A stretch of 64,000 nt of DNA, taken from the NCBI GenBank assembly GCA_012295275.1, contig CM022672.1, positions 4,154,001-4,218,000 of the forward strand, in the 5' to 3' direction. Each line of letters starts with the position of its first letter. Positions within the stretch are counted from its first letter, which is position 1. Positions 4,749-56,844 of this stretch are shown here, one piece after another. The DNA is from Chrysomallon squamiferum (taxonomy: Eukaryota; Animalia; Mollusca). The notes beneath the pieces were generated by a model. That model was not told the DNA's origin and searched no databases. It was given only the letters and a program-made list of their open reading frames with translations. Both the position numbers and the translations under genes were made by a program.

Positions 4749-7700
4749 TTTTTTTTATTATTATTATTATTATTATTGGGGTTTTTTTGTTGTTGTTTTT
4801 TATTTTTTTATTTTAGTTATTATCTGTAATCTATTAATAGTTAGATGTTTTTATTAAAATTAACTGATTTTTGTTTTATATAATATTTTAATGTTCAGTT
4901 GTTGCTTTGACAAAGGCTATAAATATTCAAATATAATAAAAAAAATTTGAACAATGAAAAACAAAATTGAAATGTTATTTATTTATTATTATTATTTAAT
5001 TTTTCTTGTTTATTGTCAAAGATGGTAAGGAATTCACCTATGTTACTTATTTTATTATTTTTGTCCAGTATGTAAATTAATAAATGTGAAATTATTAATT
5101 AATTTATACTTTAGTTTGAAATATTACAAAATGATTTGAAAAAAGCAACCCAAAGGCAGGAAAATGAAGATGAAAATAGTACTAATAGACCAAAATTGGA
5201 TAGTTTACCTTTTGAAAACAAGATGACAAAGTTACACAATATCATTAAAAATGGTGACACAGAAAATACCAGTACCATTAGAAACATGGTTATGGAAGAG
5301 AAAACTAATGATTTGCAGAATGATATTGACAGATTAGAATCTAGAGTAGAACATTTAGAAGCTGGGAAATCACTGGATCAGAATGCAGAACATAAACAAT
5401 TTTCTAATAGTGTTTCTAGAAAACAAATTGAAGGAACTGTTACAGAATACATTAGTAAAAATTCTGAAGGACACTGTACAGAGGATTGCAGAGGTCAACG
5501 TGCACAAGAAAAGAGTTTTAACCACAGAACGAATCATTCCAGGGTGGACTTTGGTGAAAAGGAAAGGGAATCTGAAAATATGTTTGAAGATGAAACTGAA
5601 GATTTATCAAAGAATGCAGCAGAAACTGTTTTTCCTGTGAGAACTTATGAAGAGTTCTTGGCTGAGTCTGGACTTAAAAGACCTGAGATTTTTGTCCCCA
5701 AAAGACCAATAGGAGAACATTTAGAGAGAGAATGTAGATACACAGATAAATCAACTAGCACTGAACCATTTGAGGATAGTTCAAATAAAACAAACAAGTC
5801 TGAAGTTCCATCATTTCAATGTGGGAATGTGAAAAATGAGACCAAACAGTCAGAAAATGAATCAGGAAATGTTTCTGAAAATGTTAATCAGCAGTCATCA
5901 AATTCTACTGAAATAAAAATTTTGCTGACGAGATGCAGAGAACTGGAGAAACATAAGTCTGACCTTCAGGCTGAATTGAAGGTAACACAGTCAAAATTAA
6001 ATAAAATAATGCATCTGGAAACTGAAAACAAAAACTGCAAGAAAAGATTTCCACCTTGTGTGAAGATCTGCAGTGTATGGAAAAGGTGAAAGTGGAAAAT
6101 TCAAGTCTTAAGCGGCTGTGCGAAGAGAAGAATGTGCAGATTGGGAAGTTACAAGAACAGATCAGGTCGCTGGAGAGTCTGGAGATGGAGAACATTGAAT
6201 TGAAGCATCAGGTGGAAGGAAAGATTCTTGAACTTCAGTTTCTCAGTTCTGGAGATCTGAAAGGAATGCAAGCCAAACTGAGAAAGCTGGAAACTGTTGA
6301 AAGAGAAAATCAGGTGTTAAATGAACAGTTGGAAGAAAAAATAGCTGAATTGGAGAAACTGAAACTCATGTTTTATGAGTACAACTCCTCTGTCAATTTT
6401 GATTTGACAACTAAAATGGATTATGCTGCAACTGAAGATATTGATCCAATAATGAGAAATCATTTTAGTTCTAAATTTGAGGATATAGGAGTGGGATCTA
6501 GCAGACACAGAAATCGAAACTGTTTTTTTACAAACAGAAAGAAGAATGAGAAGAACTGTTCAATCACTGGAAAAGATCAGCAGAGAAATGTGTCTAGAGT
6601 TAGTAATTCTGTACACACATCCACACAGACTGACAATGATAACACAACAAACTGTGCTGCTGATAATTCAAACATTCTGACTCTAAATATAAAAAATTGA
6701 CTGGAGAGGATAAATCCAGAGATATTCCAGATTCTAAAAGTGTTTCAGAAACATCTGTAAAAGTCAATGGTGCATTTGAATCAAAGACAGTGCCTTCAAA
6801 ATGTGCAGAGGAATTTGCTCAAAAGTCTAAAAATCTATTTAAAAAACCCACTGAAAGTGATGAATCCAAGACAAGGTCTATGTTGATAACTCTGAGATCA
6901 AAGCTGCAGAAGCTTCAAGAAGTGGAACAGAAAAACTTGACAGTGCAAAAGAAACTTGAAGACTCAGCCAAGTTGTTGAAACAAAGGGTAAAATAAACAC
7001 ATTGTCTCAACAGACATTTAGTGAGAAGCACTGTCACAGTGTGCATGGTTGTACATCACTTGTTATTCTAAAATAAAATAGCTCACAATATAAACTGGTG
7101 TTATGGTGCAAAGTATTGTGATGATAAGACAAAACATAATGCACACATTTATTACTTTATATATTTTATTACAAAAAAAAAATCACTGAAAAAGGAATGA
7201 GTAAAATATTGTGTACTACCACTGCCATTACCATTTGCACAGAATAATGTAAATCAGTTTGACATTCACTTTTTACTTTAAATTTTATTTTTGTATACAT
7301 TTTTTAAACAATGAAAAAAAATCTTGTGGTACAAAGAAAAAATTTCAAGTTAAGGTAAAATATTGCAGTGTCAAATATTTTTACACTTAAACATTTATTT
7401 ATCACAGTGTTGTATTCTAACAAAATATATAATTTACTTGTATTTTTTTATTCTGTTATTTTATTTTATTTTATTTTTATTATTATGTTGTTGTTTTTTT
7501 AGAAACATGGAATATATTATACACAAAATTTTTGTTGAGGCATTTGAATTTATGCTTATATATTTGTTTTATTTTTTTATTTTTTTTTTTAATTAAAATT
7601 TTTTTATATTAACTGAAGTTTATATTTTGTACCACAAAACAAATTTCTCTTCACTGTTGAAAATATTACACCTATCATTTTCTTTCAAAATATGGATGAA

Positions 7701-10700
7701 TGTTAAAATAATTGAATTGTGTGTGTATGTTGTAGTATTATTATATTTTAAGTTTTGAAGTAGGTTGTTGTTTTTCATTTATTATATACATGTTGTAAGT
7801 TTTATGTGTTTCTTTTTTCTTTTTTCTTATTACAATGATTTGTTAATAACATTTGTTTTTCCTGTTGCATATTAATAATGGCAAGTTATTTTGATATATT
7901 CTTTATCTATATTGTTAAAATATTTGCATTTCATTGTCCAATTTTAATTTTTTGATTAATGTTATTGTTTCTAATTAAAAATAATTGAATGTTTAAACAA
8001 AATGAAACGTGATAAATTTTTAATCAATATTTTTTAATAATGGATATTATTATATAATATATATATATGAGGAAGAAAATGAGACATTTTAAAGAGAATA
8101 AAAGGTAGAGAAAGACTGTAAAAAGTTAAAATATAAAGACAAGAAAGAGAAAAAGAAAAAGACAGGGAGAGAGAGACAGAAAATAAAAAAATAAAAATGA
8201 TATCTTTGAAAATAAATTTTTCTTTTGAGGAAAATCTAGAGATGTTTTCAGTTCATAGGTCTGTCAATAAAATCTCTCTTTTTATATGAATGTTTCTATA
8301 AGTTTCTAATGTTTGATTATATGTCTGTGTAAGTATTTACTAAGTACAAAATAAGTAAATAAATAAATTGAGTTTTACATGTTTTCTTCTTCCAGAAACA
8401 AACACAAAACAAGAAAATAATTTTTTTTCTCTTTTAATTACAGTTTGATGAATTGGAAAAACAGAAAACTTTACCAGACATAACAGCACTACAGACTCAA
8501 GTAACCCACCTAGCAGAGAAATGCAGAGAAAAAGATGAAACCATACAACAACTTATGAAAGAACTTCAGACATTAAAATTGACAGGGGAGACTACTCCAT
8601 CTTCTTCAGATATTCGTCAGAAAAGTAAAGAAACAGACCAGTACATTCACCATTCACCATCATCTACACCAGTATCAGTAAGTCATCATCATCATTTTTA
8701 AATATTTTTGTTCTTCTACCACTACTATTGTTATTACTTTTACCACTATTGCTACTATCAGCTTATAGTTGTCATATGACAAATATTTAACAGACTGTTT
8801 AAAAAAAGGTTATTCTGGAGGTCAGAAAGAAAAGACTCCTGACTGAAATTTCCATTTATGTTGCTTTTGAGGGCAGGGAACCTTGTTTTTTTTCTTTTAT
8901 TACATTTTTTCTTTTATCATTTTTGGGGGGGAGGTGATGATGAGAAGGTATGAAATATTTTTTACTCAAGATGTAAAAAATGAGACACAATTTAATCAAA
9001 TTTAAATTAGTTTCTTGTTTTTTCTTTGTATTATTATTATGATTTATTTTATTCTATTATTATTTTTTTTTTTTATTATTACTATCATCATCATTATTAT
9101 TATTATTACTGTTTATATTGGGCAGGTTTGTGGGGTTGACCAAAAGATGAGAAACATAATTAAAGTTATATGTTGTTTGTTTTTTTGTTTTTTTCAGATT
9201 GTTATTTCTCCAGCTGATAAAGATCTGGAAACATCTCCACTGAGCACACAGCCCAGTGAGTTTTGTTTTAAAAGTTTTTTCTTTGACATTTTTGTCTGCC
9301 AAATCCTTTAAAAGTGTTCTCATAACAGATTACCCCAGTATGTAGTACTGTCAATAGGTTTTGTATGATGTACGTTTATCTGATTTAGTGTTCAGTGTTA
9401 TTCAGTGATATTTATTCTGTTATATGGTCAGTAAAATCTTTTAACAATTTTAATACTTGTATCTTACATATTCTTGAATACCTTCCTTTACACTGTCCAG
9501 TTCTAAAAAGTATTTCTTGATACCTAAGGAAGGAAAATAGTAAAAATCTCTGGTCATTTATTCTTATACTTTATTATTAGCAAATTTTGGTTATAATTAA
9601 CCAGAGCAACCAGTCACTTTAAGATACACGAAATATATTTAAACTTTTTTGTTTCTTTACTTAACAGATATATTTTGATCAGATTCAAATATACAAATTT
9701 TCTTTTAATTATAAAAACATGTTTGTTTAATTAAACTTTAAAGTAGATAAAATGTTTTAATTTTAATTAATTTTTTTTCAAAGTGTGTACCTCCACCCCA
9801 GTAAAGGATTCATCTACCCACATACGTCACACATCAACAACTCAGACCTGTGAGAGCACCAGTGTTACTTCAGCTACACAGACATCATCATCCAGCAGAC
9901 ACAGACTTCTCCCACGAAGTCGTAAGTTTTGTTTATTGTATAAAATTATTTTTATTTTTGTTTTGTACTTCATTTGAATATTAGTGATTACTCTTTTATT
10001 ATTTTTTATTATTAATTATTTATTTGTTAATTTATTAAAACTATTAATTTATTCAGTTTATTTTTTGGTAATTTTGTCTTAACTTAGTTTTATATATGAA
10101 TTTTATAAATAAAGTAATAGCATCTCTTATTCCATTTAACCAGTTTTTTTGAAATTTGCTTTTGAATAAATTTTATTTTATTCAGTGATAATAATCATAA
10201 TAAATTAATTGGTTAAATAGTAAAAATCAAAAAAGAGGGGGCTGAAATACAAAATATTGTTTAAAGATCTGATTTAAAATTATTTAAATATTTTTTATTC
10301 TATATATTCATAGCTTCTCCACAACCACCAAAGAATTTCCGCATTTCAAGGCTCATTGGAAACACAGGCATAATGTTGTCATGGCAACCAACAAAACTAT
10401 TGGAAGATGAGAATAGCAACAGTTCATTTGTCATTGGTTACAAAGTAAGTGGAAAAAAAACAATTAAATAATACTACAAAGAAAACAATAATAACAGTAC
10501 TAACAATTAAATAAGTACATTAATTAATTAATTAATAAACAAATATTAAAACAACTCAAGTAATTACCACAGCAAAAATCTGAAATATACCTATTAAATA
10601 AATAAATAATAATAAAAATAACCATAAAAATAAGAAAATCAATTAATTATAATGAAAAATAAATATCAAAATTAAATAAATAAAAACAACATATAACTAT

Positions 10701-12057
10701 TTACAATAAATAAATGATAACGATTGAAAAAAAAAATAAATAATAACATGAATCAAAACAATATCAAAACTGAAATTAAACAAGTAATAGTTATGATAGC
10801 AATAATTACAAATGAACATTTCACATTTCAGCTGTTTTTGGATGGTAGACTGGTCCAGCAGGTATCAAACCCACGCACTTCAAAAACTGTGATAGAAAAC
10901 ATTGACGTTGCTGAACCTCATCACTTTGCCATACAGACAGTAGCAGCAAACAATCAGACGTCATCGCGGGTGGAGTTGATTACGAAGGTATCGCTCCTGT
11001 GGTGACAGCGATTCAGTGTCATCACTGGACACATCCATCATGTCCAGCATTCAGTTTGATGAGAACTACAAGCGACTGGTCAGTGGGCGATGTTTGCATT
11101 TGTTAATGTTGTTGTCATTATTAAGTTAGTTTTATTACCGTTGATTTTATTATGAAATTGTTGTTGTTGATATTGTTACAGTATTATAAATTTATTATTA
11201 TTATTTTAAAATTGTTATTTATCATTTTGTATCTTCATCGTCATCATTATTAGTGTTATTAACATTGAACTGTGATTTTAAAAATACGTTTTTGAAATGA
11301 TTCATTTATTATTATTTAATAATTTTTGTTTTTCAAATTATTATTATATTATTATTACAATGTTATTTGTTGAATTTATCATTTCAACATTTACTACTTA
11401 TAGAAAAGTAATTAATTAATTAATATTTTATTTTTTTATTTTTTTTTATTTATTTATTTATTTCTATTATACCAAACCCCAGAAATACATTTTTGACATC
11501 ATCAAAAAAATAATTGACTGTTGTTTATGGCTATCAGACAACAAACTTCACAAAACTGAAAATAACTAAACCAATAACTGATTGTTATTTGTAGCTAGCT
11601 ATGACTGCAACAATCAGAAAATGAATGATGATTAAAACAATAACTGACTGGTTTATTTATTTTTTTTATTTTTTATTATTGTAGTTTATGGCTGTTTATG
11701 ACTACAACCCTCAAAAGCAACCAGATCAATATTACTCAAAGTACGAGCTGGCTTTCCGAGCTGGAGATATTGTAGCTGTGTATGGTTCACAGAGATCTGA
11801 TGGGTACTACCATGGAGAGGTGAGTCACAAAACTAATTAAAACTCACTGATCTACATCACATGTTTGCTTTAGTCTGGCTTTAGTTTGGCTTTAGATTTA
11901 TTTATTTTTCAGTATTGTTGTTGTTGTTAGTAGTAGTAGTTATAATAGTTTTAGTAGTAGTGATAGTAATTTTATAATTTTTTGTTTTTGTATTTAGAAA
12001 TTTATTCCATTATTATTAGTAGTAGTAGTATCATCATCATCGTCGTCATTATCATTA

Positions 12058-19443: not shown

Positions 19444-21759
19444 TGTGTGTTAAAGAGTTACCAGCATGGCAGGTGCTCGGAAGACGTAGCTGAAAGGGTA
19501 GTTTATCAGATTCATGAAAGACGCAGCGTACAGATCAGCGTATCTCATCACCTGACTGGCAAAAAATGTCTGTCGAGAGCCTGGTGAATAAACAGATAAA
19601 TAGACAGACAGACAGACAGACAAATAGAGAGATAGATAGACAGAGAGACAGACAGACAGACAGACAGATAGATAGACATAGAGAAATAGACAGACAGACA
19701 GACAGATTTAAAAAAAAGAAAATCAATACTTTTTTCAACTTAAATAGATATATAAAAATTATTTCAATAATTAAATAAACAAAAAATAAATAATAGTAAT
19801 ACTGAATAGTTTTAATAATAACAATAATAATAATAATAATAATAATATTTATAATAAAAAACTATTAATTATGACAGTAGTAACGCATTCGAAGTAACAG
19901 AACTAGACTGAAGATACTAACCACTTCTGAACAGACTTCCCAGAATTCCATATGACATGTCCATTTCATGTGTCACTTGCTGGAAAGGTAAACAATCAAA
20001 TTCAGTTTGACAACAACATTTATAATAACTGCCTGTGTATTTATTACTTTACTGACATTACAGAACACTAAAGTATATTTAACTGAAAATTCAAATTATT
20101 CAGGACAAGTTTGCTAATTTAAAGATGCGTAATGGACTCAGTATATTTAACCACACAACTGAAAAGGTGAATAATTTTGTAAAATTACACACACACACAC
20201 TAAATCTATAATTTAATTGATTCTATGTCTCTGTTTACATTTTTTGTTTCACCAAAGGACACTAAGTATATTTAACTGGACTTTCACATGATCAAGTACA
20301 TCAGTTAATTTAAAGTTGTTGTAAACACAGAATGTGAAATCTCACCCGTATTTCATGCTGGATGGCGTAAATGTCTGGTTTCTCTGAACAGCTACTGTCC
20401 AAATTCCTGAAAAAATAATTTTCAAAATAATTTAATAGTTACTTGCAATAATTAAACAAACCAACCAACAGAATAAATAAATATAAAATGAAATGAAATG
20501 AAATTAAAAATCATAATAGTAATAATAATAAAAAAATTTGTAACAACATTTCCTAATTAAAGAAAATAAGTAAAATGTGATGAAAATGAAGCCAAGTTAA
20601 AGATAATAAAGAAAATAATTAATTAAAATAAAATATATAGCAAAAAAATATATATATATAGTAAATATATATTCTCTTTTTTCTCCATTTTCTAATTAAA
20701 AAATAATAATAATAATAATTTTAAAAATTCTCCAATTTACCACTTACAGTAAAACAAATTTAGAAACAAATTTCTCTTCTCTAGTCTTCTAATAATTTTG
20801 TTTTTACTAATTTAAAAGATTCTCCACTTTTGCAGTTACAGCAAAAAAAAAAAAAAAAAAAATTTGCTAAATAAATATCTCTTATTTTCTTCAATCTTCT
20901 AATGAAAAACAAAAAAAAGACAAAATAAATATAGCTAAGTTAAAAACAGCTGCGATTTTGTAAGTGTAGGAAAACGTACTTGTACATCTCTCCTATTTTA
21001 CAGTCAAGCTCTGCCAGCTTGGAGTACAAAGCTCTCCTGCTAGTCCAGACATTTAGTTCTTGAGAAAGTTCTGGAACACAAAGAAATGTCCGCCAGCCCA
21101 CTTTCTTTGACTTCTGAATGTCACCGAAAATGTGATCACCAACATACAACACTTCATTGCCATACGTTCCCATCAGTTCCGAGAACACATCAACAGAACC
21201 TGAAATGTCATTTAATGTTTGAGTGCTAAATATGACAAGGTAAAAAATAAAAAGAACTAGTTAATAGTCAACAAACAAAACGAAAAGACGAAGTAGTAGT
21301 TTTTATTATTGTATTTCATTATTGCTCTTGTTGTTGCAGTTTAAAACTGATTTAAAAGAGTTTATGTTATTTGATATGACATCGTATTACTGTTTTCATC
21401 ATTATTACTATAACTACTGCTACTGCTATTATTACTACTACTACTATTACTATTATAACAATAATAATTTATATAAGAAAAGAAAGGAAATAGCTTTATG
21501 ATATTAATTTCATATCTTATTTTTATTAGGAAAGATTGGAAGTTTATTTTTTTTTAATTTTAATATCTGCTTTGTGTCTATATCGTAATTGTAAAATTTT
21601 GTATAATATTATGAATATGTCACTAATACTAAAGACTAATATGCAGACCTCCAGAATAAATATGGTCCGATGAAATGGGCCCTGTATGGGTTCCAATTTT
21701 TAGTGATCCAGTTTTCTGAACAAGCAAAAATAAATAAATAAATAAAATAATAATAATAA

Positions 21760-21792
<33 letters not shown>

Positions 21793-22452
21793 TTTAAAAT
21801 GTAAAATAACAAAATAAATTTAAATTAAATAAATAAAAAATAAAAATATCTATTTAAACAAATTATGTAAACAATGTTATAATTTTTTTTTTCCAAACAA
21901 CTTTTAAGAATAAAATTAATAATCACTGTTAGGTAGGTCTTGTAATTTTCAATCTGTAACTTTTTTTATATATAAAATAAACATCTTTCTATCATAAATA
22001 GATATGTGAAAATAATTCTAAAATGTATTTGTAATTTTAATTGTTTTTGTTGTTGCAAATTAAAAAAAAAAAAATTTGAGACAACTCTTCTAACCTTGTC
22101 AACCTGACGGAGTATTGTCCCCTGCTGAAAGAAGATTGGTTTGCTTGTGTCACAGAAAATGTAGTCAAAGTAAGACATCCATTCTCGTTTGGGCGATCCT
22201 TCCTACAAAAACAGTTTATCTCATATGTATATAAAATCTTTTTACTAGCAGATTTTGAAAAACTTTTCATTTTTAAAGCACCATTCCAATTTTGTTTTAA
22301 TATTTTAGTAAATTTTAGGCAACATACACATATCCTCAAAATCAGAAAGAAAAAAAAGATGGAATTTCACAATACATATATATATAAGAAAATAAATTAC
22401 CTTTTGTGGAGGATAATCCAGCAAATAAGTCATAATTTTCTAAAATTAAAAG

Positions 22453-30830: not shown

Positions 30831-33640
30831 GTAGTGTTAGTTACAGAAAGCATGAAGAGGAAAACAAGCAAAGAAGTGAAGTGACAGGAGAGCCCTAGGG
30901 ACTGACTGTTTCATCTCAGACAAATACCTGCCACACAGAATCTCTACATCTGGCAACAAGCCAACCTCCACTGACACCCGCCTCATTGTTCCCACCTGAA
31001 ACCCATCAGGAAGTGACCTCTGACATATATTTACCTTTGACCCCAGGAAGCAGAACCTGCTTGAGGTTCTATTCCCAGAAGAACAGAGCTGCAGATGGTT
31101 TGGGATTAGATATAAGTAGAATTTGTTAAAGCTTCTTTTTTTTGTCTTATTTATGATGATGAAGAGAAACCAAAAAAAAGTTGAAGATGTGTTTTACTGA
31201 TTCGAAGGATTTTGAATCTAGTTTTTCACTGCATCATCAACATGGTTAATGACAATAAATAATTGAGAAAGGAAGCCATCAAACCTTCTCAAATTAGCAG
31301 AAAAGCAATCAGTTTAACTCAAACTATCATTATAAAAAAAATATATTTAAATTATTAAAAAGATTTAACTGTTAATAGTTGTTTAAAAAAAAATAATTTG
31401 AAATATGTTTTATTGGAAAAGGCATCTGAAATTTGGAAATAATGGCTATTTCGTTCTCAACATTTTAAACATTTTTGCTGGTGATACTGACATGTTCAAA
31501 TAACATGAAGCCAACATTCATTGATTCTGAATGTGCACATTGTGGATAAACTGTTATTTCAGATAGGAAATGAAGGGTGAATTAAAGGAAACATAGGAAT
31601 TAGGAATTAATTCTATTTGATATATTTAAAAACTGATGTGGTTTTCATTGGGGAGGTATTTTTTTTTTTTCAACATTTAGAAATTGTTTATTTTTATTAC
31701 ATTATTTTGCCATATCATGTTGTTATCCATTTTATTTTATTTTAAAAAAGAGTAAAAGATTAAAATCAGAAGAAGAAAAAAATAAAAAAGAAGAAGAGAA
31801 ATTTATCATCATCATCAAATATCACTGACTGATGTAAATGATATTTTCTTCTGATTGACTGTAAGGATTCTGATTTAATTTTAATTTTTAATTTTTAATT
31901 TTTTTTACAAAATCTAAAAAACAAATATGTAATAATAAAAAAATAATAAATGAGCTAAATTAATTTCAATATTAATATTAAAACAGCAAAAATCATGAAG
32001 ACAATTTTACATCCGAGTATTGATTTTGCAGAGAAATATAACAATCATAGTAATCTTGAATTAAACAAAAAGTATGTGAAATTGAAACTTTAAAAATGAG
32101 TGGCTGAAAAGAAACCAAATAAATACTCAATTTAATCACGAGATAAAATATGAAATAAAAAAATAAAAAAACAAAAATCTTAGGATGTGCTCCAAAACAG
32201 AGATCGTGTGTTATTTGTTTTATATTTGGAAAATGAAAGTTCCAAGCAATTAACTAAGTGCTAAATGACAGAAAGTCATTTAGGAAATCAAAAACACGTG
32301 CAGTTTTAGTTACACTAGCAAAAATAAAAATAAACAGATGAAGATGAAGAAGTAAGAATGAAACAGATATTAAAAATAAATGAAAAACAAGAAGAAGTAA
32401 AGGTAACAACAATAATAACAATATCGATGATAATGATAATAATAATAATAATAATAAAAATTGAGATCAGTAACAATAGTAATAATTATGATGATGATGA
32501 TAACAATATTACTACTAATAAAAAAATAATAATAATAAAATTAATAATAATAATAATAAAATTACTGTACATGCAAGAACACAGAGGTCCACTGTAAGAT
32601 GTACTTTTACTGCATTTGATACAATTACTATTACAATTTTATATCATTAATTTAGTTCTTATTATTCCTCTTATTATTATTGTTATTCATTTTATTATTT
32701 TATTAGTAAAAGTATTATTAGGCATACTAATATTATTATTATTACACATTTAATATTATTGTTGATATTATTACAACAATTATCACTATTACTGCTACAA
32801 CTACAACTACTGTTACTATTATTATTAAAATAAATACAGGTATATCATGAAAACAAACAGAAAAAAAGAAGAAAAACTAAAAAACTATTAAAAACATCAC
32901 TCATGTCAGATAAAAACCTAAAAAGACAGCTACTACTTTTATTACTATTATTAATAAATGATTTAAAAAAAACACAAATATATAACAGATAAATTAATAT
33001 ACAAATAAACTTGTGGTGGTATCTTTTTTCTTTTTCCTTTTTTATTTATTTTCTTCTTCTTCTTTCTTTCTTTCATCTTCTTTTTCTTTTTTTCTTTTTT
33101 TCACACCTAAATATATTAACTAAGCTGATGGAATATTAAACTTCAAAAAAAAGAAAAAAAAAAAAAGTTATCACATCTGCTTCTATTGCACACATGGGCA
33201 ACATCTGAGAAAGAAAGATTTGAACTAAATTGTGGATACGATTCTATTTGTTATATTGTGTATTTGCTTGCCTAAGAACCTGGAAAAGATGGCTTTATTA
33301 ATATATTTAGATCATGAACGTTGCCAATGACTTATGCACTGAAAATAGTAAGTTTGAAAAAACAGAAAGTTTTTAGATGTGAGAGAGACAAAAAAAGAAA
33401 TATTGAAAGACAGAGAAAGAAAGAGAATGGAGTGGAATCTGAAGTGTGCCCATGCACCAGTAAGTATAATGTGAATAATCAGAGACAGACAGTCAGACAG
33501 ACAGACATACAGAGAGAAAGAGAGAGAGAAACATTACTTTTTGTGTATGTTAATGTAGATCTGTATGTGTTTGTGTATATATAAATAAATCTATATTTAT
33601 CTAGACATACACACACACACACATATATACAGACATTCAG

Positions 33641-49932: not shown

Positions 49933-50715
49933 CATGGACATTCTGATATGAACTTACTAGTTCATGACAACATACACATAAACAGAACAATATTAAAAAG
50001 ATACACACACAAACACTGATGCAAACCACAAATCTAGTTTTGATTAAAACCTCCTTAAAATATATCATCAGACCAGAAAATGTCCCTGAGATGGTCAAAT
50101 CGGTCATTCCACCTGCAATTATCTATCAAGTTTACCTGCATTATCACTTACCCCACCTGTATTAAAGGTAGATTAGATCATCATCTATCGCCTTGAAGTG
50201 ATTAATCCACTTGAATCTGTGGAGGCTTTAACCAGTTAATCTAATCACAGGATAAACTTCCGCTTCACGAAGATTAAGTGTTGTGTTAATCTGTGATGAT
50301 ATTGTTGAGATTAAGTAATCAGATTATCTGTAGGTGTTAATAGGTTATCATACCACAGAACAGATTAAATAATAGCTGATGCTGGATTAGTGATGTTTTT
50401 AACATTCTTGTCACAGAGCTCTATTGTAGAGATTAAGTAATCAGATTATCTGTGATGTTAATAGTTCTATTTGCTGTAAAGCAAGTTTAACTTGAAATTT
50501 GTGAGTTTGGTTAACACCTTTGATGCTGAATGACGAGAGATCTCCACAATGCAGTACGTCTATTTTTAACAAGTTTCCATTTTCATGTTGAATGCAATAT
50601 TCCACACAGAAACATTTAAAAATACAACAACACCAAAATAAAAACCCAAAACATTATAAATAGTCAATTCTGTTACTGAAATATATTAATCTGCTGTTAT
50701 GATGATGATGATGAT

Positions 50716-50873
50716 TACTATTATTATTATTAATTGTTAATTTTATTATTATTAATAAGGGCACACATATTTTTTATAATTTCTGAAAAGATATTTAAAT
50801 TCTATTTTCATAATTTCTATTATTATTATTATTATTGCTGTTGTTTTTGTTGTTGTTGTGAACGACATAATAA
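50716..50873 (+). repeat. Left copy of direct duplication flanking the viral element
   Basis: cacacatattttttataatttctgaaaagatatttaaattctattttcataatttc(tat)n..gacataataa; matches 55063-55252. Confidence 0.9.
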
Positions 50874-51313
50874 ATATTGGTGTGACTAACTTCGAGCAAC
50901 ATTAACAGGGCCATAGGCCATGGCAGCTTCGTTAGCTCAGACACTCAGGCATTGCTCAAAGTTACTCAGGCTTAGACATTGCTTGAACTTACTTGCAAAG
51001 AGCCATTGCTACCCACCTGCCCACCCAGTTACTAGTTCTACTCCTGGAATTATTATAATAATGAGAGGTTTATTTTGGGGGCTCACCAAAGTCCCCTTTT
51101 GGGGGATTTTGAGATAACTTATCTATTTTAGTGACATACAAACAGGTAAAGCAAAGATAACATGACGAGTGTAAACATTTCAACTTTTTATTCAAGGAAG
51201 CACTTAAAATAGCATCTGGTTAACATGACATAATAGCAAACGAAATAAAAAATAATGAATGTTCACAGTTCTGTAGTAATGACAGAGATTTGGTACAATA
51301 GTTTTTTCATGCA

Positions 51314-51319
51314 TTTATT
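51314..51319 (-). terminator. Polyadenylation signal of the viral transcription unit
   Basis: AATAAA overlapping the TAA stop of the last viral frame; further AATAAA at 51192-51187. Confidence 0.45.
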
Positions 51320-51866
51320 GGTCCAGGATAACAGTCTTTTGGCTGTCTTCTCTGTCTTCATCAGCAGCATCATCCAAGTTGCAACAGCCATCATCTGAGA
51401 AAAAAGCTTGACTTTCTGCAGGCTTCTGTGTGCTTCATTTTTTTAGCTTCCCCATTTTCATCAGAGTCAAAGTGCAGTTTCTTTTTAGGTAAAGGCTGTC
51501 CCTTAGGCTTTTGTAGGCAAAGTGATCTCGGCCTTTTAGATGCTTTTGCTTGTTTAGTTGTCGTTTCTTCATCTTTGTCTTGGCGAAAGAAAGGTTTGCC
51601 TCTAGGACAGGCTGGTTGTCTCTGGTATTTCTAATTCTGACTGCATCTGGTGTCATCCATTGGTCTATGGTCTCTTCGAGCAGTTGGTCTCCTTTTTGAA
51701 TTTGAATTTAGGATCATAGATGTAGTTGCCACCTTCATTGGTGGTGAACCTCCTTAGCTGTAAGTATTGTGGATGGAAGAGGGTGTACCCTGGAATTGCT
51801 GATGAGGAGAGAGTAGTGTTTCTTTCTGAAGGAGTTAGCTTCGTTGAGCAGCATTTGGTGAGTCAT
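51315..51866 (-). pseudogene. Decayed small viral gene downstream of capsid
   Basis: accATG at 51866 after a TATA box. Frame-broken segments MTHQMLLNEANSF.., ..IPGYTLFHPQYLQLRRFTTNEGGNYIYDPKF.., ..KASKRPRSLCLQKPKGQPLPKKKLHFDSDENG.., ..LDDAADEDREDSQKTVILDQ*; the stop lies inside AATAAA at 51319-51314. Confidence 0.55.
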
Positions 51867-51879
51867 GGTAAATTCAAAT

Positions 51880-51931
51880 GAATACTGGGTTAGCATGCAA
51901 GCGGGTTATATATAGCGAGATAAGCTTATCA
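51880..51931 (-). promoter_or_regulatory. Viral internal Pol II promoter: GATA palindrome, TATA box, Inr-like
   Basis: On -: GATAAGCTTATC (51930-51919), CTATATATAA (51915-51906), CCAGT/TCATT ~25-30 nt downstream, then accATG. Confidence 0.6.
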
Positions 51932-51937
51932 GTTTCT

Positions 51938-53725
51938 TCAGATATTGTGCTGGATGACGCGTTGATCCTTGTTTTTCATGTCAAATCTGTTTGAGATGTT
52001 GTTGTCCCAGCAAGCTGTTGTCTTCCTCAGGGCACGTTGTCTGTATGTTCGTGCTGAATATTGTCTCCATATCAGGTTTCTGTTTGTGTGACCCCTGTCT
52101 CTTTGTATACGGTTGTTCCACTCTTGTTTGCTTTTTCCTTTTCTTTGTTTATGCCAGGTAAGTGTTTCCTGTCTTTCTACTAGGCCTGTCATGCCGTAGT
52201 AAAAGCCTCTTGGATGACTGGTGTAGACTCCTCCTATTCCTACTGGAATGTAGTTGGGTACATAATGGCTTCTGTAGAAGAATTCTATTTTGGAGAAGTA
52301 AGTGATCTGCATGTTGGCGTGGTAGTTGTAGAATTTCTGACTGGCATCGTTTATGGGTTCAACATCAGGATAGCATCCTATTAGGTAGAGAGGAGGTCTT
52401 TTAGTCGATGGTTGCAGGAGTTTACCATGTTTGCCTCGTCTTGTCTTTTCTTCGTTTGGTGCTATGCTGACAAAGTCTAGGTACTGTTGGCCTTGTATGT
52501 GAGCTCCAACTGGAATGACTCCTTTGCGTCCTCTTACTTTCATATTTTCTGTGACATGGTTTTCGTCATCTCTGAGCGTGCGTCCTTCGTTTCTTCTAAC
52601 TTCACTTGAGAGGTATTGGTAGCGTATTAAGTCTTGAGGAGCGCTGTATTCAGAGCCTTGGTTTTGTGATAGCTGTTCCCGTGTGAGCCAGGGTGTGAGA
52701 GGTCCTTTTTGCACTTGTGGATTTGTTTCTGTGTACTGGTTTTTGCTGTCTGCTCCAGTGATGTGCGTGAAGTCAATGTCATGGCTGGATGCTCCAGGAA
52801 ACAGTATCAGAGGCTTGATGCCTATTTCAAATTCGCAAGACATGCCTCCTTCGCTGGCTGTGAATTCTCTGTAGGCTGGATGTTTTTTCATTTGGTAGAT
52901 GTGGTCCGGATTCGAAGAAGAGAATTTAGGAGGATCATCGCTTTGTTTTTCCCAGGCACTGTGTAACAGCATCATGGCTTCGTCTGATGGTAGTAGTATA
53001 TGTCTGTCAGGTAAGTCTTTTAGTTGTCTATCGGTTGCATCATCCAAGCATTCTTCGTCTTGGAAGTTTCTGTTGTGACTCAAGTCGGTGCAAGTCATGT
53101 CTGGCAAACAGTAGTCTCTGTTGACATCTATGAAGGACCAGAGTCTTGCATTTGGTGGAGGCAGTGCTGGAACGTTGTTCGGATCATTTTTCTTGTTATT
53201 TAGTATGTGCATCGTCATATTCGGAATATGGAATCCAAATGAATGTACTTTGTAGCCTATGCATTCATCGGGTAAGTTCCAGTCGGATGGAATGGTGCTG
53301 GCTTCTTTGAAGAAGTATGGTATTATTTTTCCTCCATGGTTGAAGGTGAGAATGGCTTTGTCTTGGTCTGTGAGTGTGTAAGTGGAGTCGTCTGGGTAGT
53401 CTTGGAATAGTATTTCTGCTTTTCTTGTTTTGGAGAATGTCATGAAGGAAGCGAATGTTCGTTTGAATGTCTTTTTCACGCTTACAAAGCGTGTGTCTGC
53501 TGTTTTTGTTATTCCTCCGAAGCTGGAGAATAGGACGTCATTTTGTTTGGCATCTGCTGCTGCATTCTCAGCTATGATGTCTAGGTTTTGATTTGGAATG
53601 TCGGTTTGAGTTCCTATTCCTAGGTCTTGATGTGGATTTTGTTGGCTTTGGGAGAGTTCCTCTTCATAAGACTCTTCATAGTTCATGTCTCCTGTTAGGT
53701 GTGTTTGGCTTCGTGTTCCATACAT
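51938..53725 (-). CDS. Parvovirus-like single jelly-roll capsid protein (VP), uninterrupted ORF
   Basis: First ATG at 53725 (track starts at GTG 53734; frame open to 53878). Motifs in the order seen in parvoviral VP: KTFKRTF; IIPYFF..STIPSDWNL (cf. AAV TPWGYFD..FSPRDWQRL); YKVHSFGFHIPNM (cf. FRPKRLNFKLFNI); LWSFIDVNRDYCLP (cf. VQVFTDSEYQLP); PPLYLIG..NYHANMQITYFSKIEF (cf. PPPQILIK..QYSTGQVSVEIEW). Recognised by eye, not by search. Confidence 0.8.
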   Translation of the reverse strand: MYGTRSQTHLTGDMNYEESYEEELSQSQQNPHQDLGIGTQTDIPNQNLDIIAENAAADAKQNDVLFSSFGGITKTADTRFVSVKKTFKRTFASFMTFSKTRKAEILFQDYPDDSTYTLTDQDKAILTFNHGGKIIPYFFKEASTIPSDWNLPDECIGYKVHSFGFHIPNMTMHILNNKKNDPNNVPALPPPNARLWSFIDVNRDYCLPDMTCTDLSHNRNFQDEECLDDATDRQLKDLPDRHILLPSDEAMMLLHSAWEKQSDDPPKFSSSNPDHIYQMKKHPAYREFTASEGGMSCEFEIGIKPLILFPGASSHDIDFTHITGADSKNQYTETNPQVQKGPLTPWLTREQLSQNQGSEYSAPQDLIRYQYLSSEVRRNEGRTLRDDENHVTENMKVRGRKGVIPVGAHIQGQQYLDFVSIAPNEEKTRRGKHGKLLQPSTKRPPLYLIGCYPDVEPINDASQKFYNYHANMQITYFSKIEFFYRSHYVPNYIPVGIGGVYTSHPRGFYYGMTGLVERQETLTWHKQRKGKSKQEWNNRIQRDRGHTNRNLIWRQYSARTYRQRALRKTTACWDNNISNRFDMKNKDQRVIQHNI

Positions 53726-53739
53726 TTTTTTCACTGTTT

Positions 53740-54576
53740 TTTTCTGGTAAAGTTTCAGGTCAGTTTCGAAGAGTGTCTGCGTTTTGTAGTTGTTTGTATA
53801 CTTCTGGAGTTGGAAATTGTGTGTTGAATTGATTTCTGAAGTCTTGCCAGAAACTGTTTGCTTCGAGTGGTGAGTATCCTAGTATTTGTTGTGCTTTTAA
53901 GAAGTTTTGTTTTATGCTTTCCCAAAGAATATGTGCTTGTTGTGGTCTTTCTCTCTGTCTTTTTCTCAGTTTGTTGATGATATTCTCTCTGTAGACTGCT
54001 TGTTGTGTGTTGACTATTCTTCCTACTTGTGGTCCTAGTCTTTTGGCTTTAGTATCTAGCTTATAATTCCTATACCTGTTTAAATGTTGTACAAGAATGC
54101 TGATGTCAACTGTTTGTGTTCTTCCGTCTGTGTGTTCTATGGATGTATTTGACGCGTTTTGTATTATCCAGTTGTTGCTAGTTTTATATTTCCTATACTA
54201 TAAGTCATATACTCCACTGTGTAACCACTTCTTAGGATTATTGGTTCTGTATCCTTCTTTTATGTCACTCCAATACTGGTGTTGGTAGATATTTGTTCAT
54301 ACAGTGTTCAGTGCTTACTTGATTGAGTTTTCTTTTCCTGTGAAGTCTAATATTTGACCTGTGTTGTCTTTGTTTTTCCACACTAAGTCTTCTTCTTTGT
54401 CTACTGGATGTAGTTTTTGGTTCGTATTTGTCTATTCCCTCTGGGTTTTCGTAATCTTTTGTAGATGTTGGCCCAGTTATTGTGTCTGGCCTATTTCTTC
54501 CTTCTTCTTTTAATTTCTCTTCTTCGTCTAAATAATTATAGAGTTTTGAGGAGCGCTCTTGACGAAATGTGTCACC
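53740..54576 (-). pseudogene. Decayed viral ORF upstream of capsid (possible VP1-unique extension or separate gene)
   Basis: One frame ~54420-53740 reads KLHPVDKEEDLVWKNK...HQYWSDIKEGY...NNWIIQ...LRKRQRERPQQAHILWESIKQNF...FWQDFRNQF with in-frame stops at 54317, 54299, 54200 and 53762; a frameshift near 54420 links to an upstream segment (KLYNYLDEEEKLKEEG...). Confidence 0.6.
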
Positions 54577-54943
54577 TTAAAAGCTCTGTTATGTTGTGAT
54601 ATGCGTGTCTGATTGGTGCAAACCTACTGCACCTAATTTGAACGTTAGCATATTACCTCTTACTGCTGTCATGTGACAGGATGTTAGTTTGAATTTTGAA
54701 CTTATTAAGCTTGGTCAGGTAAATGATAAGGAGAGATGTAATGTTAGACTCGGTTTAGATGAGTCTGCATAAGTTTATTGGTGCTGACAGATAGCTAATG
54801 TACTCGTCAGGTGTTAACTTTCTTAGTAAATGCTAACAAAAATGTCGCTATAATGGGGCAGCTTTTTTTATAATATTTTTTTTATTTTACTTTTTTTAAA
54901 AATATTTCAAATGTTATTTTTTTTTTTTTTTTTTTTTTAAATA

Positions 54944-55062
54944 CATTGGATAGGGCAGAGGCTTTGAAATGCGTACACCGTCAATGAAGTTGACATTGTC
55001 TACAGCCTGTCTTAACTGCAACAGTATGTGCCTTTCAAAGCCGCCACCCCCTCAATCCAATG
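54944..55062. mobile_element. MITE (~119 bp) with imperfect TIRs and TA flanks, Tc1/mariner-type target
   Basis: TA|CATTGGATAGGGCAGAGGCTTTGAAA...TTTCAAAGCCGCCACCCCCTCAATCCAATG|TA. Confidence 0.75.
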
Positions 55063-55163
55063 TACTATTATTATTATTTGTCATTAGTTTACTATTATTA
55101 ATAATTACACACACATTTTTTATAATTTCTTAAAAGATATTTAAATTCTATTTTCATAATTTC

Positions 55164-55215
<52 letters not shown>

Positions 55216-55252
55216 GCTGTTGTTTTTATTGTTGTTGTAAGTGACATAATAA
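55063..55252 (+). repeat. Right copy of direct duplication flanking the viral element
   Basis: Same sequence as 50716-50873 with a few substitutions and a longer (ATT)n. Confidence 0.9.
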
Positions 55253-56844
55253 TTATTATCTAAGCATTTGTAAACCAGTTAATTTTAAAATTATAAATAA
55301 TATGTCTGTGTGAGTGTGTGTTAGTGTGTGTGTCCTCTAAATATCCCTAGATCAAACCCATGTGGGTGACCAACTCTTCTGTTTTTAGACTGGTACACAA
55401 CACATATTATGACATAAGTATATGGCGCCAGTCTTTAAGATGAAAGGAACCACAAACTCATTTGTCCATACATTAGAACAAAGATTAAAGACTTGTAATG
55501 GCTTACTGCTTTAAGGCAGAACATTCAGAGTAATAATGCATAACTGTTTTGTTTATTATGCTAATTCAGTGAAATCTGTTATATGTTTTTCTGTCTGTAA
55601 AGAATGAGTAAAACATTCTAAAATGCAGCTATCTTCAAAACTTCCTTTTCTTTCTTTTGTACTCCTATTTATTATTTTTAATTTATAAATTATTTTTTAT
55701 ACAACTTATGTTGTAGTGATTTTTTTTTTAATGTGGAGTTTTATATGAACAATGATAAAATATTGAATATCTGTTGCAATACTTCTCAATCAAATAAAAA
55801 AAAATAATAATAATAATAAAAAAAAAAAATTAAATAAGTAAGTAAATAAATAAATAAATAAAAATAAATAAAAAATAAATAACAACATTAAATAGCAAAG
55901 CTTTTAAGCCATGTATTTTTACCAGTAGAATTTCATACATTAATGTTTTTTGATAATTTAATTTTTTTTTTTTTTTTTTTTTTTTTTTGTTGTTGTTGTT
56001 GTTGTTATTGTTGTTATTGTTATATTATGTTACATTATTGTTTGGTTTGTTTATTTTTTGGATTTATAATGCATTTACTGTTATGTGTGTTTCATTTTAT
56101 TTATGTATTTATTTATTTATTTAATTTTATTTTTTCTAACTTTTTAAAAGTAATATTAATTTTAACCAGTTAAATGATTATTCATAGAGTAATTTAAATA
56201 AAACTTTAGTTAAATGCACAATTTGTCCTGTACTTATAAAAACAACAGTAATAATGTTCTATACTAATGTTTCATCTCCTTTTATGGCATAAAAATGGAA
56301 TTATGGGTAACAGACTGAAATCTTAAACACCAGAACTAATTTCCTCAAAATCTTTAGTCAGTGTGTGAAACAGGAAGTAACTCTTCAAGATCTAAGGGAG
56401 AAAAAAAGAACCAGGTCAAAGTTCAAGGAGAAATCTAAAGCTTTGACATGTGTGACCTGTTCAAAGCAACAAGTGGAACATTGTTATACTTTGTTATACA
56501 AGACCACATTTGATTGGTCAGTTTGAAATAGACTGGTGTTCTTAATAACACTGGTACAGACACCTGTTACATATGTTTGAAATGAACACCATGGTGATTT
56601 AACAGCATGAATGTTTTCTAATTGTTTACCTTCTCTGTAGTTTAGCATAACATTACACTTTAGGGTTCATTCATCCAGTGTGTTCAAACAAGAGCTGTGA
56701 TTTTTCTAATCCCCTATAGCAGCAATGCTTTTAGCATCTCTGATTACACCACTGGCTCCAGTCTGGATGTATATGCTTTCTTTTTACATCAGATTATACT
56801 GGTGTGTTTTGTGTTCACTAAACCCTAATTACTCTCTTAGTATG

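Follow-up and report, generated by a model that had tools for sequence, protein, structure and literature searches.

The element and its host surroundings

The window analyzed was a 64,000-nucleotide stretch of Chrysomallon squamiferum contig CM022672.1. Intron-containing animal genes were found in it, a RIMBP2-like gene and a 5'-nucleotidase, and 4 of 58 open pieces had a clear family. The 5'-nucleotidase family exons lie at 20943-22202 on the minus strand (PF05761, E = 1e-21). Upstream of the RIMBP2-like exons, three overlapping open frames with coiled-coil character (324, 224 and 109 codons; 5115-6996 and 8438-11002, plus strand) have the appearance of a single large host exon whose frame changes twice, due to assembly error or to decay as a pseudogene.

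By its sequence, the feature under study is an endogenous parvoviral element of about 4 kb on the minus strand (50879-54860), with approximate ends. Its GC content is ~40%, against ~25% in the host, and it shows strand skew. An AT-rich, microsatellite-containing direct repeat flanks it on the left (50716-50878, plus strand), with a second copy on the right (55063-55257, plus strand) identical at 147 of 160 aligned bases. The remaining 13 mismatches, with three gaps, confirmed the earlier statement that the flanking copies have diverged. As a third partial copy exists, at 32405-32491, the repeat is an uncertain clock, and dating from it was used as an upper calibration only; from its sequence it may be a dispersed family rather than a target-site duplication.

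The element ends form weak folds (scored with no shuffle control), no inverted repeat linking them was present among the 25 longest of 134, and Rfam and tRNA scans gave no match. Immediately to the left of the element, short direct repeats occupy 50270-50460 (32 nt, 97%, spacing 122). A GC-richer, single-copy stretch of 120 bases (54940-55062) is bounded by a poly-T run and the right repeat; it is either a viral end or host sequence, and a retrotransposon tail was ruled out by its single-copy depth in X1.

Nine runs under one organism label, from three studies, contained the stretch, and seven of these (designated X) were compared as contigs, the best match among which may be the window's own source. 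The element was present in all seven, all nine runs having been chosen as containing it. Copy number was judged from contig depth, and element depth equaled flank depth in X1 and X2. Contigs of X2 and X5 join the element to the right-hand host flank. With intron-containing animal genes in the window, these joins and the equal depth place the element in the host chromosome as a heritable insertion. No joint skipping the element was seen in the four runs compared with flanks, where contigs cannot show absence.

The sequence-only reading had set an intact capsid gene between two ruined viral genes, ORF-A upstream and ORF-C downstream. The three internal stops claimed for ORF-A are there, all within 120 bases of a single frame in its 5' half (54198-54640, minus strand), where another frame is open for 103 codons (54576-54265). 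The ORF-C region (51290-51870, minus strand) is made up of short open pieces in three frames, and a capsid-trained codon model gave a capsid-like signal in no frame. As to their being viral genes, the 3' half of ORF-A proved to be capsid sequence (see below), but its 5' half and ORF-C had no homologue in protein, Pfam, PHROGs or PDB searches, which were weak (one spanned lengths 117-373). Possibly the 5' half of ORF-A was never a single gene. As neither neighbor has a homologue, their ruin is uncountable and the claimed asymmetry is therefore not quantifiable from the window. The argument from ruined neighbors is thus weak, and the conclusion of selection that was drawn from it is instead moderately backed by variation in other samples.

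NS1 was matched in none of 12 read-through frames searched against Pfam, 6 against PHROGs and 1 against PDB sequences, so the element is regarded as a parvovirus-derived fragment and no complete genome; it may hold a diverged, fragmented NS1 remnant. The 54576-54265 frame contains a Walker-A-like word, which the Pfam search did not support as such a remnant, and an ambisense NS on the plus strand likewise gave no Pfam match. PLA2 was not detected in the element by Pfam search. A parvovirus with its capsid on a separate segment is described in PMC10267136, and by analogy a separate capsid segment could be the source of the NS1 absence. Scans of viral contigs for a related viral locus with gene order found none, and those of metagenomes gave one 1-kb fragment.

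Consensus matches alone mark promoter-like motifs (CCAAT and a palindromic E-box; 54612-54677, minus strand) and two AATAAA polyadenylation-like hexamers (51187-51319, minus strand). The element occurs in contigs of two metatranscriptomic RNA runs from one study, which are unstranded and may contain DNA. Both sets of motifs stand near the ends of these contigs, which in both runs end or drop in depth near 54620-54640, by the promoter-like motifs, a weak hint of transcription. Depth was 8-13 over most of the element and 0-4 in the flanks, values that do not give an expression level.

The capsid frame and its displaced N-terminal part

An open-reading-frame scan of the window gave a minus-strand frame of 646 codons with no stops (53878-51938), as had been claimed from the sequence, and homology identified it as a parvovirus capsid. 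At local base composition the chance of such an open frame is ~1e-15; the frame was singled out for study for being open, an ascertainment that bears on the tests below. Its first Met is codon 52 (53725) and its next is codon 65. From the first Met, the open major-capsid (VP2-like) frame runs for 595 codons (51938-53725, minus strand), assigned on homology, fold and conserved columns, with the jelly-roll core at ~53557-52220 on the same strand. The first 51 codons of the long frame (53726-53878, minus strand) are without Met and likely represent an out-of-register reading. Columns conserved in the family were kept at 36 of 42 positions.

An exhaustive protein search with the capsid returned 48 homologues at E ≤ 0.001, 25 of them at E ≤ 1e-30, and identity to these 25 was ~30% over the jelly-roll core. 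A word-indexed search returned one relative (39% identity), and the capsid by itself matched nothing in sequence searches of Pfam and PDB. In a protein atlas the core was placed among densovirus and parvovirus capsids (0.95). A structure model built from a 37-sequence alignment had a mean pLDDT of 67, versus 29 for a model made with no alignment; the top fold matches of the model were parvoviral capsids (best E = 4.7e-9 in PDB and 8.5e-14 in BFVD), and all 45 of the PDB fold matches listed were parvoviral capsid entries. Going by homology and the predicted fold, the 646-codon frame encodes a parvovirus capsid with a single jelly-roll.

The closest relative was P0052 (38% identity over 529 columns), with which the element groups as sister in a quick tree of 31 rows (SH-aLRT 99). 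P0002 and P0052-P0063 are 13 capsid proteins, some full-length and some broken, which lie several to a contig on four contigs of 8-452 kb, and this cluster is likely a multi-copy endogenous parvovirus of another genome. P0004-P0035 form a parvovirus capsid family (650-980 aa) with a conserved N-terminal helical motif. No Pfam capsid match was obtained in the 28 long members of this family scanned, and one member carries a PLA2 domain ahead of the motif.

The capsid gene as a whole did not turn out to be intact: its N-terminal motif lies in another frame, across one break. The motif was located at ~53927-53787, within an open, Met-less frame of 145 codons that ends in a stop at 53760 (53760-54197, minus strand). 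Its profile match (E = 2e-6) was the sole match among 2027 six-frame segments of the window, and the upstream frame itself gave a BLASTP E of 8e-6. Because the motif sits there, this frame, the 3' half of ORF-A, is taken as the capsid gene's own front end. The capsid-trained codon model scored -5.7 for the long frame over its first ~50 codons versus +2.1 for the upstream frame, and the frame change falls between ~53790 and 53730. Of the 28 relatives with at least 580 aa, 25, the sister P0052 among them, have the motif and the capsid core in one ORF, as do 26 of all 34 examined.

X1, X4 and X6 matched the window across the junction, as did X3 over 53743-53872, so the break is real and shared. 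Assembly error was ruled out by the agreement of X1, X4 and X6, and programmed frameshifting at A-runs by the termination of the upstream frame before them. The two ORFs of the element resemble in size the split capsid ORFs of PfDV and AdDV. In parvoviruses, the capsid is assembled by the common C-terminal region, and functions in entry belong to the N-terminal extensions (PMC6521121).

Variation among runs

Versions in the seven other runs differed by up to 2.6%. Substitutions were taken from the best-supported 40 of 75 and 40 of 102 difference rows, and from codon 52 onward 35 substitutions were listed. Three of these, all amino-acid changing, stand beside an 18-nt indel and were dropped as possible alignment artefacts. 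The remaining 32 comprised 13 synonymous and 19 nonsynonymous changes and no stops, where 8.7 synonymous changes and 1.2 stops were expected (omega = 0.54, interval 0.26-1.2, P = 0.059); when the three were retained, 13 of 35 were synonymous (omega = 0.63, P = 0.11). The selection ratio proposed earlier as a check thus came out below 1 in the listed rows, but its interval includes 1. Within core codons 108-540, a region chosen after looking, 11 of 23 listed substitutions were synonymous (P = 0.021), and the C-terminal tail, with 1 of 7, looks unconstrained. One X3 contig, for which the list was complete, had 7 of 14 synonymous (P = 0.089). Shifted control frames showed no excess in the listed rows (7 and 8 synonymous versus ~9 expected).

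Alignable amino-acid changes (15 of the 19 listed) fell on columns of mean conservation 0.28, versus 0.39-0.45 expected under mutation-type-matched global and local nulls (P = 0.0013-0.014), and one listed change falls on a 97%-conserved column. Frameshifting indels account for five of the rows listed for the main version of X9 (four or five events), all within the 1025 bases upstream; across 1737 bases of the frame there were none, the indel there being an in-frame one of 18 nt. This clustering had P = 0.007-0.04, or 0.03-0.14 with a minor frameshifted version included and up to 0.27 with a doubtful X6 deletion.

A neutral fossil, little older than the diversity of the host alleles, its frame open by chance and ascertainment and now decaying, is an unlikely but weighty account of these data. 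Neutral survival of the open frame was computed analytically, with no correction for the choice of an open frame, at 0.006-0.21 for 1.3% change per lineage, the values of 0.13-0.21 being those with low indel rates, and at no more than 0.008 for 4%. Damaged versions also segregate, as neutrality would have it. In X9, codon 316 carries a 4-nt insertion (depth 12.5 versus ~35), and codons 511-518 are lost in a 24-nt deletion that removes eight residues adjoining a conserved strand (depth 23.4/41.4). A 1-nt deletion at codon 607 in X6 (depth below 5) is absent from the same version in X5 and is possibly an error. Disrupted alleles in other individuals had been named beforehand as evidence against domestication, and on this point the X9 versions count in part against it. 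Substitution density in the frame was not reduced either (2.6% in X9 and 1.4% in X3, not below the 0.35% upstream in X3 or the 1.4-2.2% of the flanks), and the capsid gene has already been broken once. Against neutrality, three partly independent tests on the listed rows deviate from it (Fisher-combined P = 0.001-0.03), and listing rows by depth should not favor synonymous changes.

Diversity across the element was uneven. At 52075-54905 lies a block where X1 shows very little diversity, with 2 differences over 2831 bases, and where it is also low in X2, X4, X5 and X6; the block adjoins ~2% diversity at 51000-52100 and could reflect a sweep or a common haplotype. At 51931-52104, in the capsid C-terminal tail, the version in X5 and X6 shows 11 differences over 174 bases, one of which was among the rows listed.

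Improbable, too, is a viral origin of both patterns, in which the X3- and X9-type versions stem from a second insertion or from conversion by a sibling strain, and the N-terminal part and the major capsid are natively separate and joined by splicing. Split capsid ORFs are spliced together in PfDV and AdDV (PMC6521121), the frame break is common to all versions covering that region, and the motif and core share one ORF in nearly all long relatives, P0052 included, which is contrary to a native split, as is the passage of two RNA contigs across the junction with no gap. Loop-confined variation elsewhere has been read as viral selection (PMC6232428), the cluster of closest relatives consists of several intact and broken copies on long contigs, and for X3 and X9 the comparison covered the element alone. 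A second insertion is opposed by the finding of no copy less than 90% alike over the frame in X3, X5 and X6 (80% cut-off), and by the variants of the X9 version, which recur piecemeal in X1-X6 as a mosaic, including runs whose locus is bridged to flank. We infer that the versions in the seven other runs are alleles of one locus, older than the flank diversity of 1.4-2.2%.

Retention of the element as a piRNA or siRNA source against related viruses, with the open frame incidental, is very improbable: both RNA runs contain the whole element, beyond the capsid frame, and the low-diversity block of X1 spans capsid and upstream region alike, but such a role would not lead one to expect an excess of synonymous changes, indels that keep the frame, or changes that spare conserved residues.

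A candidate domesticated capsid and its known counterparts

Taken together, the evidence for weak host purifying selection on the capsid core is moderate. The reading preferred here, held with confidence somewhat short of even, is that the host has kept the major-capsid frame by such selection while the N-terminal part lies out of frame. Because damaged versions segregate, the selection appears weak or relaxing. More tentatively, the animal may have dropped the replication gene and the N-terminal extension and kept the jelly-roll core, making particles or decoy subunits of its own. Under the preferred reading, a transcript would start from the retained viral promoter region, and translation from the internal Met would give a capsid protein lacking the N-terminal extension. 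The putative function of this product is that of an antiviral decoy against a related circulating parvovirus, with whose capsids it would co-assemble or compete, giving non-infectious particles. If the more tentative reading is true, a domesticated capsid has been caught while still polymorphic for loss, so that gain and loss become testable in populations. With open as well as damaged alleles at a single-copy locus, natural genotypes could be compared to see whether a capsid-derived element protects its host. The element also documents an unclassified parvovirus lineage in this host.

Among capsids, likeness to those of unclassified Parvoviridae (P0052, and QKE54994.1 of Parvoviridae sp., which is P0008) consists in core homology. 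Unlike theirs, the N-terminal motif of the element is out of frame, and their glycine-rich stretch is absent from it, as it is from P0052. Solved capsids (Zophobas morio black wasting virus, 8t9x; Syngnathus scovelli chapparvovirus, 9nek; AAV) are matched in fold, with identity to solved densovirus and parvovirus capsids of 10-13% and TM-scores of 0.27-0.36 by query length.

Endogenous parvoviral elements with intact, expressed ORFs have been reported, chiefly Rep-derived (10.1101/2021.10.25.465781, PMC10384997, 10.1101/572735), and densovirus integrations, some of them transcribed, are described in tapeworms (PMC6880638). For capsid-derived elements, one survey considers that co-option remains unknown, and it states the general idea of a host capsid as antiviral decoy (10.1101/2021.10.25.465781). 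No tested case of a co-opted parvovirus capsid was found in a literature search whose scope left subscription papers and supplements outside. The degu and elephant Rep and the guinea-pig enRep-Myo9 are likewise parvovirus-derived open frames in animal genomes and candidates for co-option, but these elements are Rep/NS1-derived and vertebrate, whereas the present one is a capsid. Most of the co-opted parvoviral genes known to date derive from Rep/NS1, from which a capsid candidate would differ. Fv1 and endogenous JSRV Gag are capsid-derived restriction factors, and the proposed logic is shared with them, a host capsid protein interfering with a related virus; both are retroviral Gag, whereas the element is parvoviral and its decoy role is putative.
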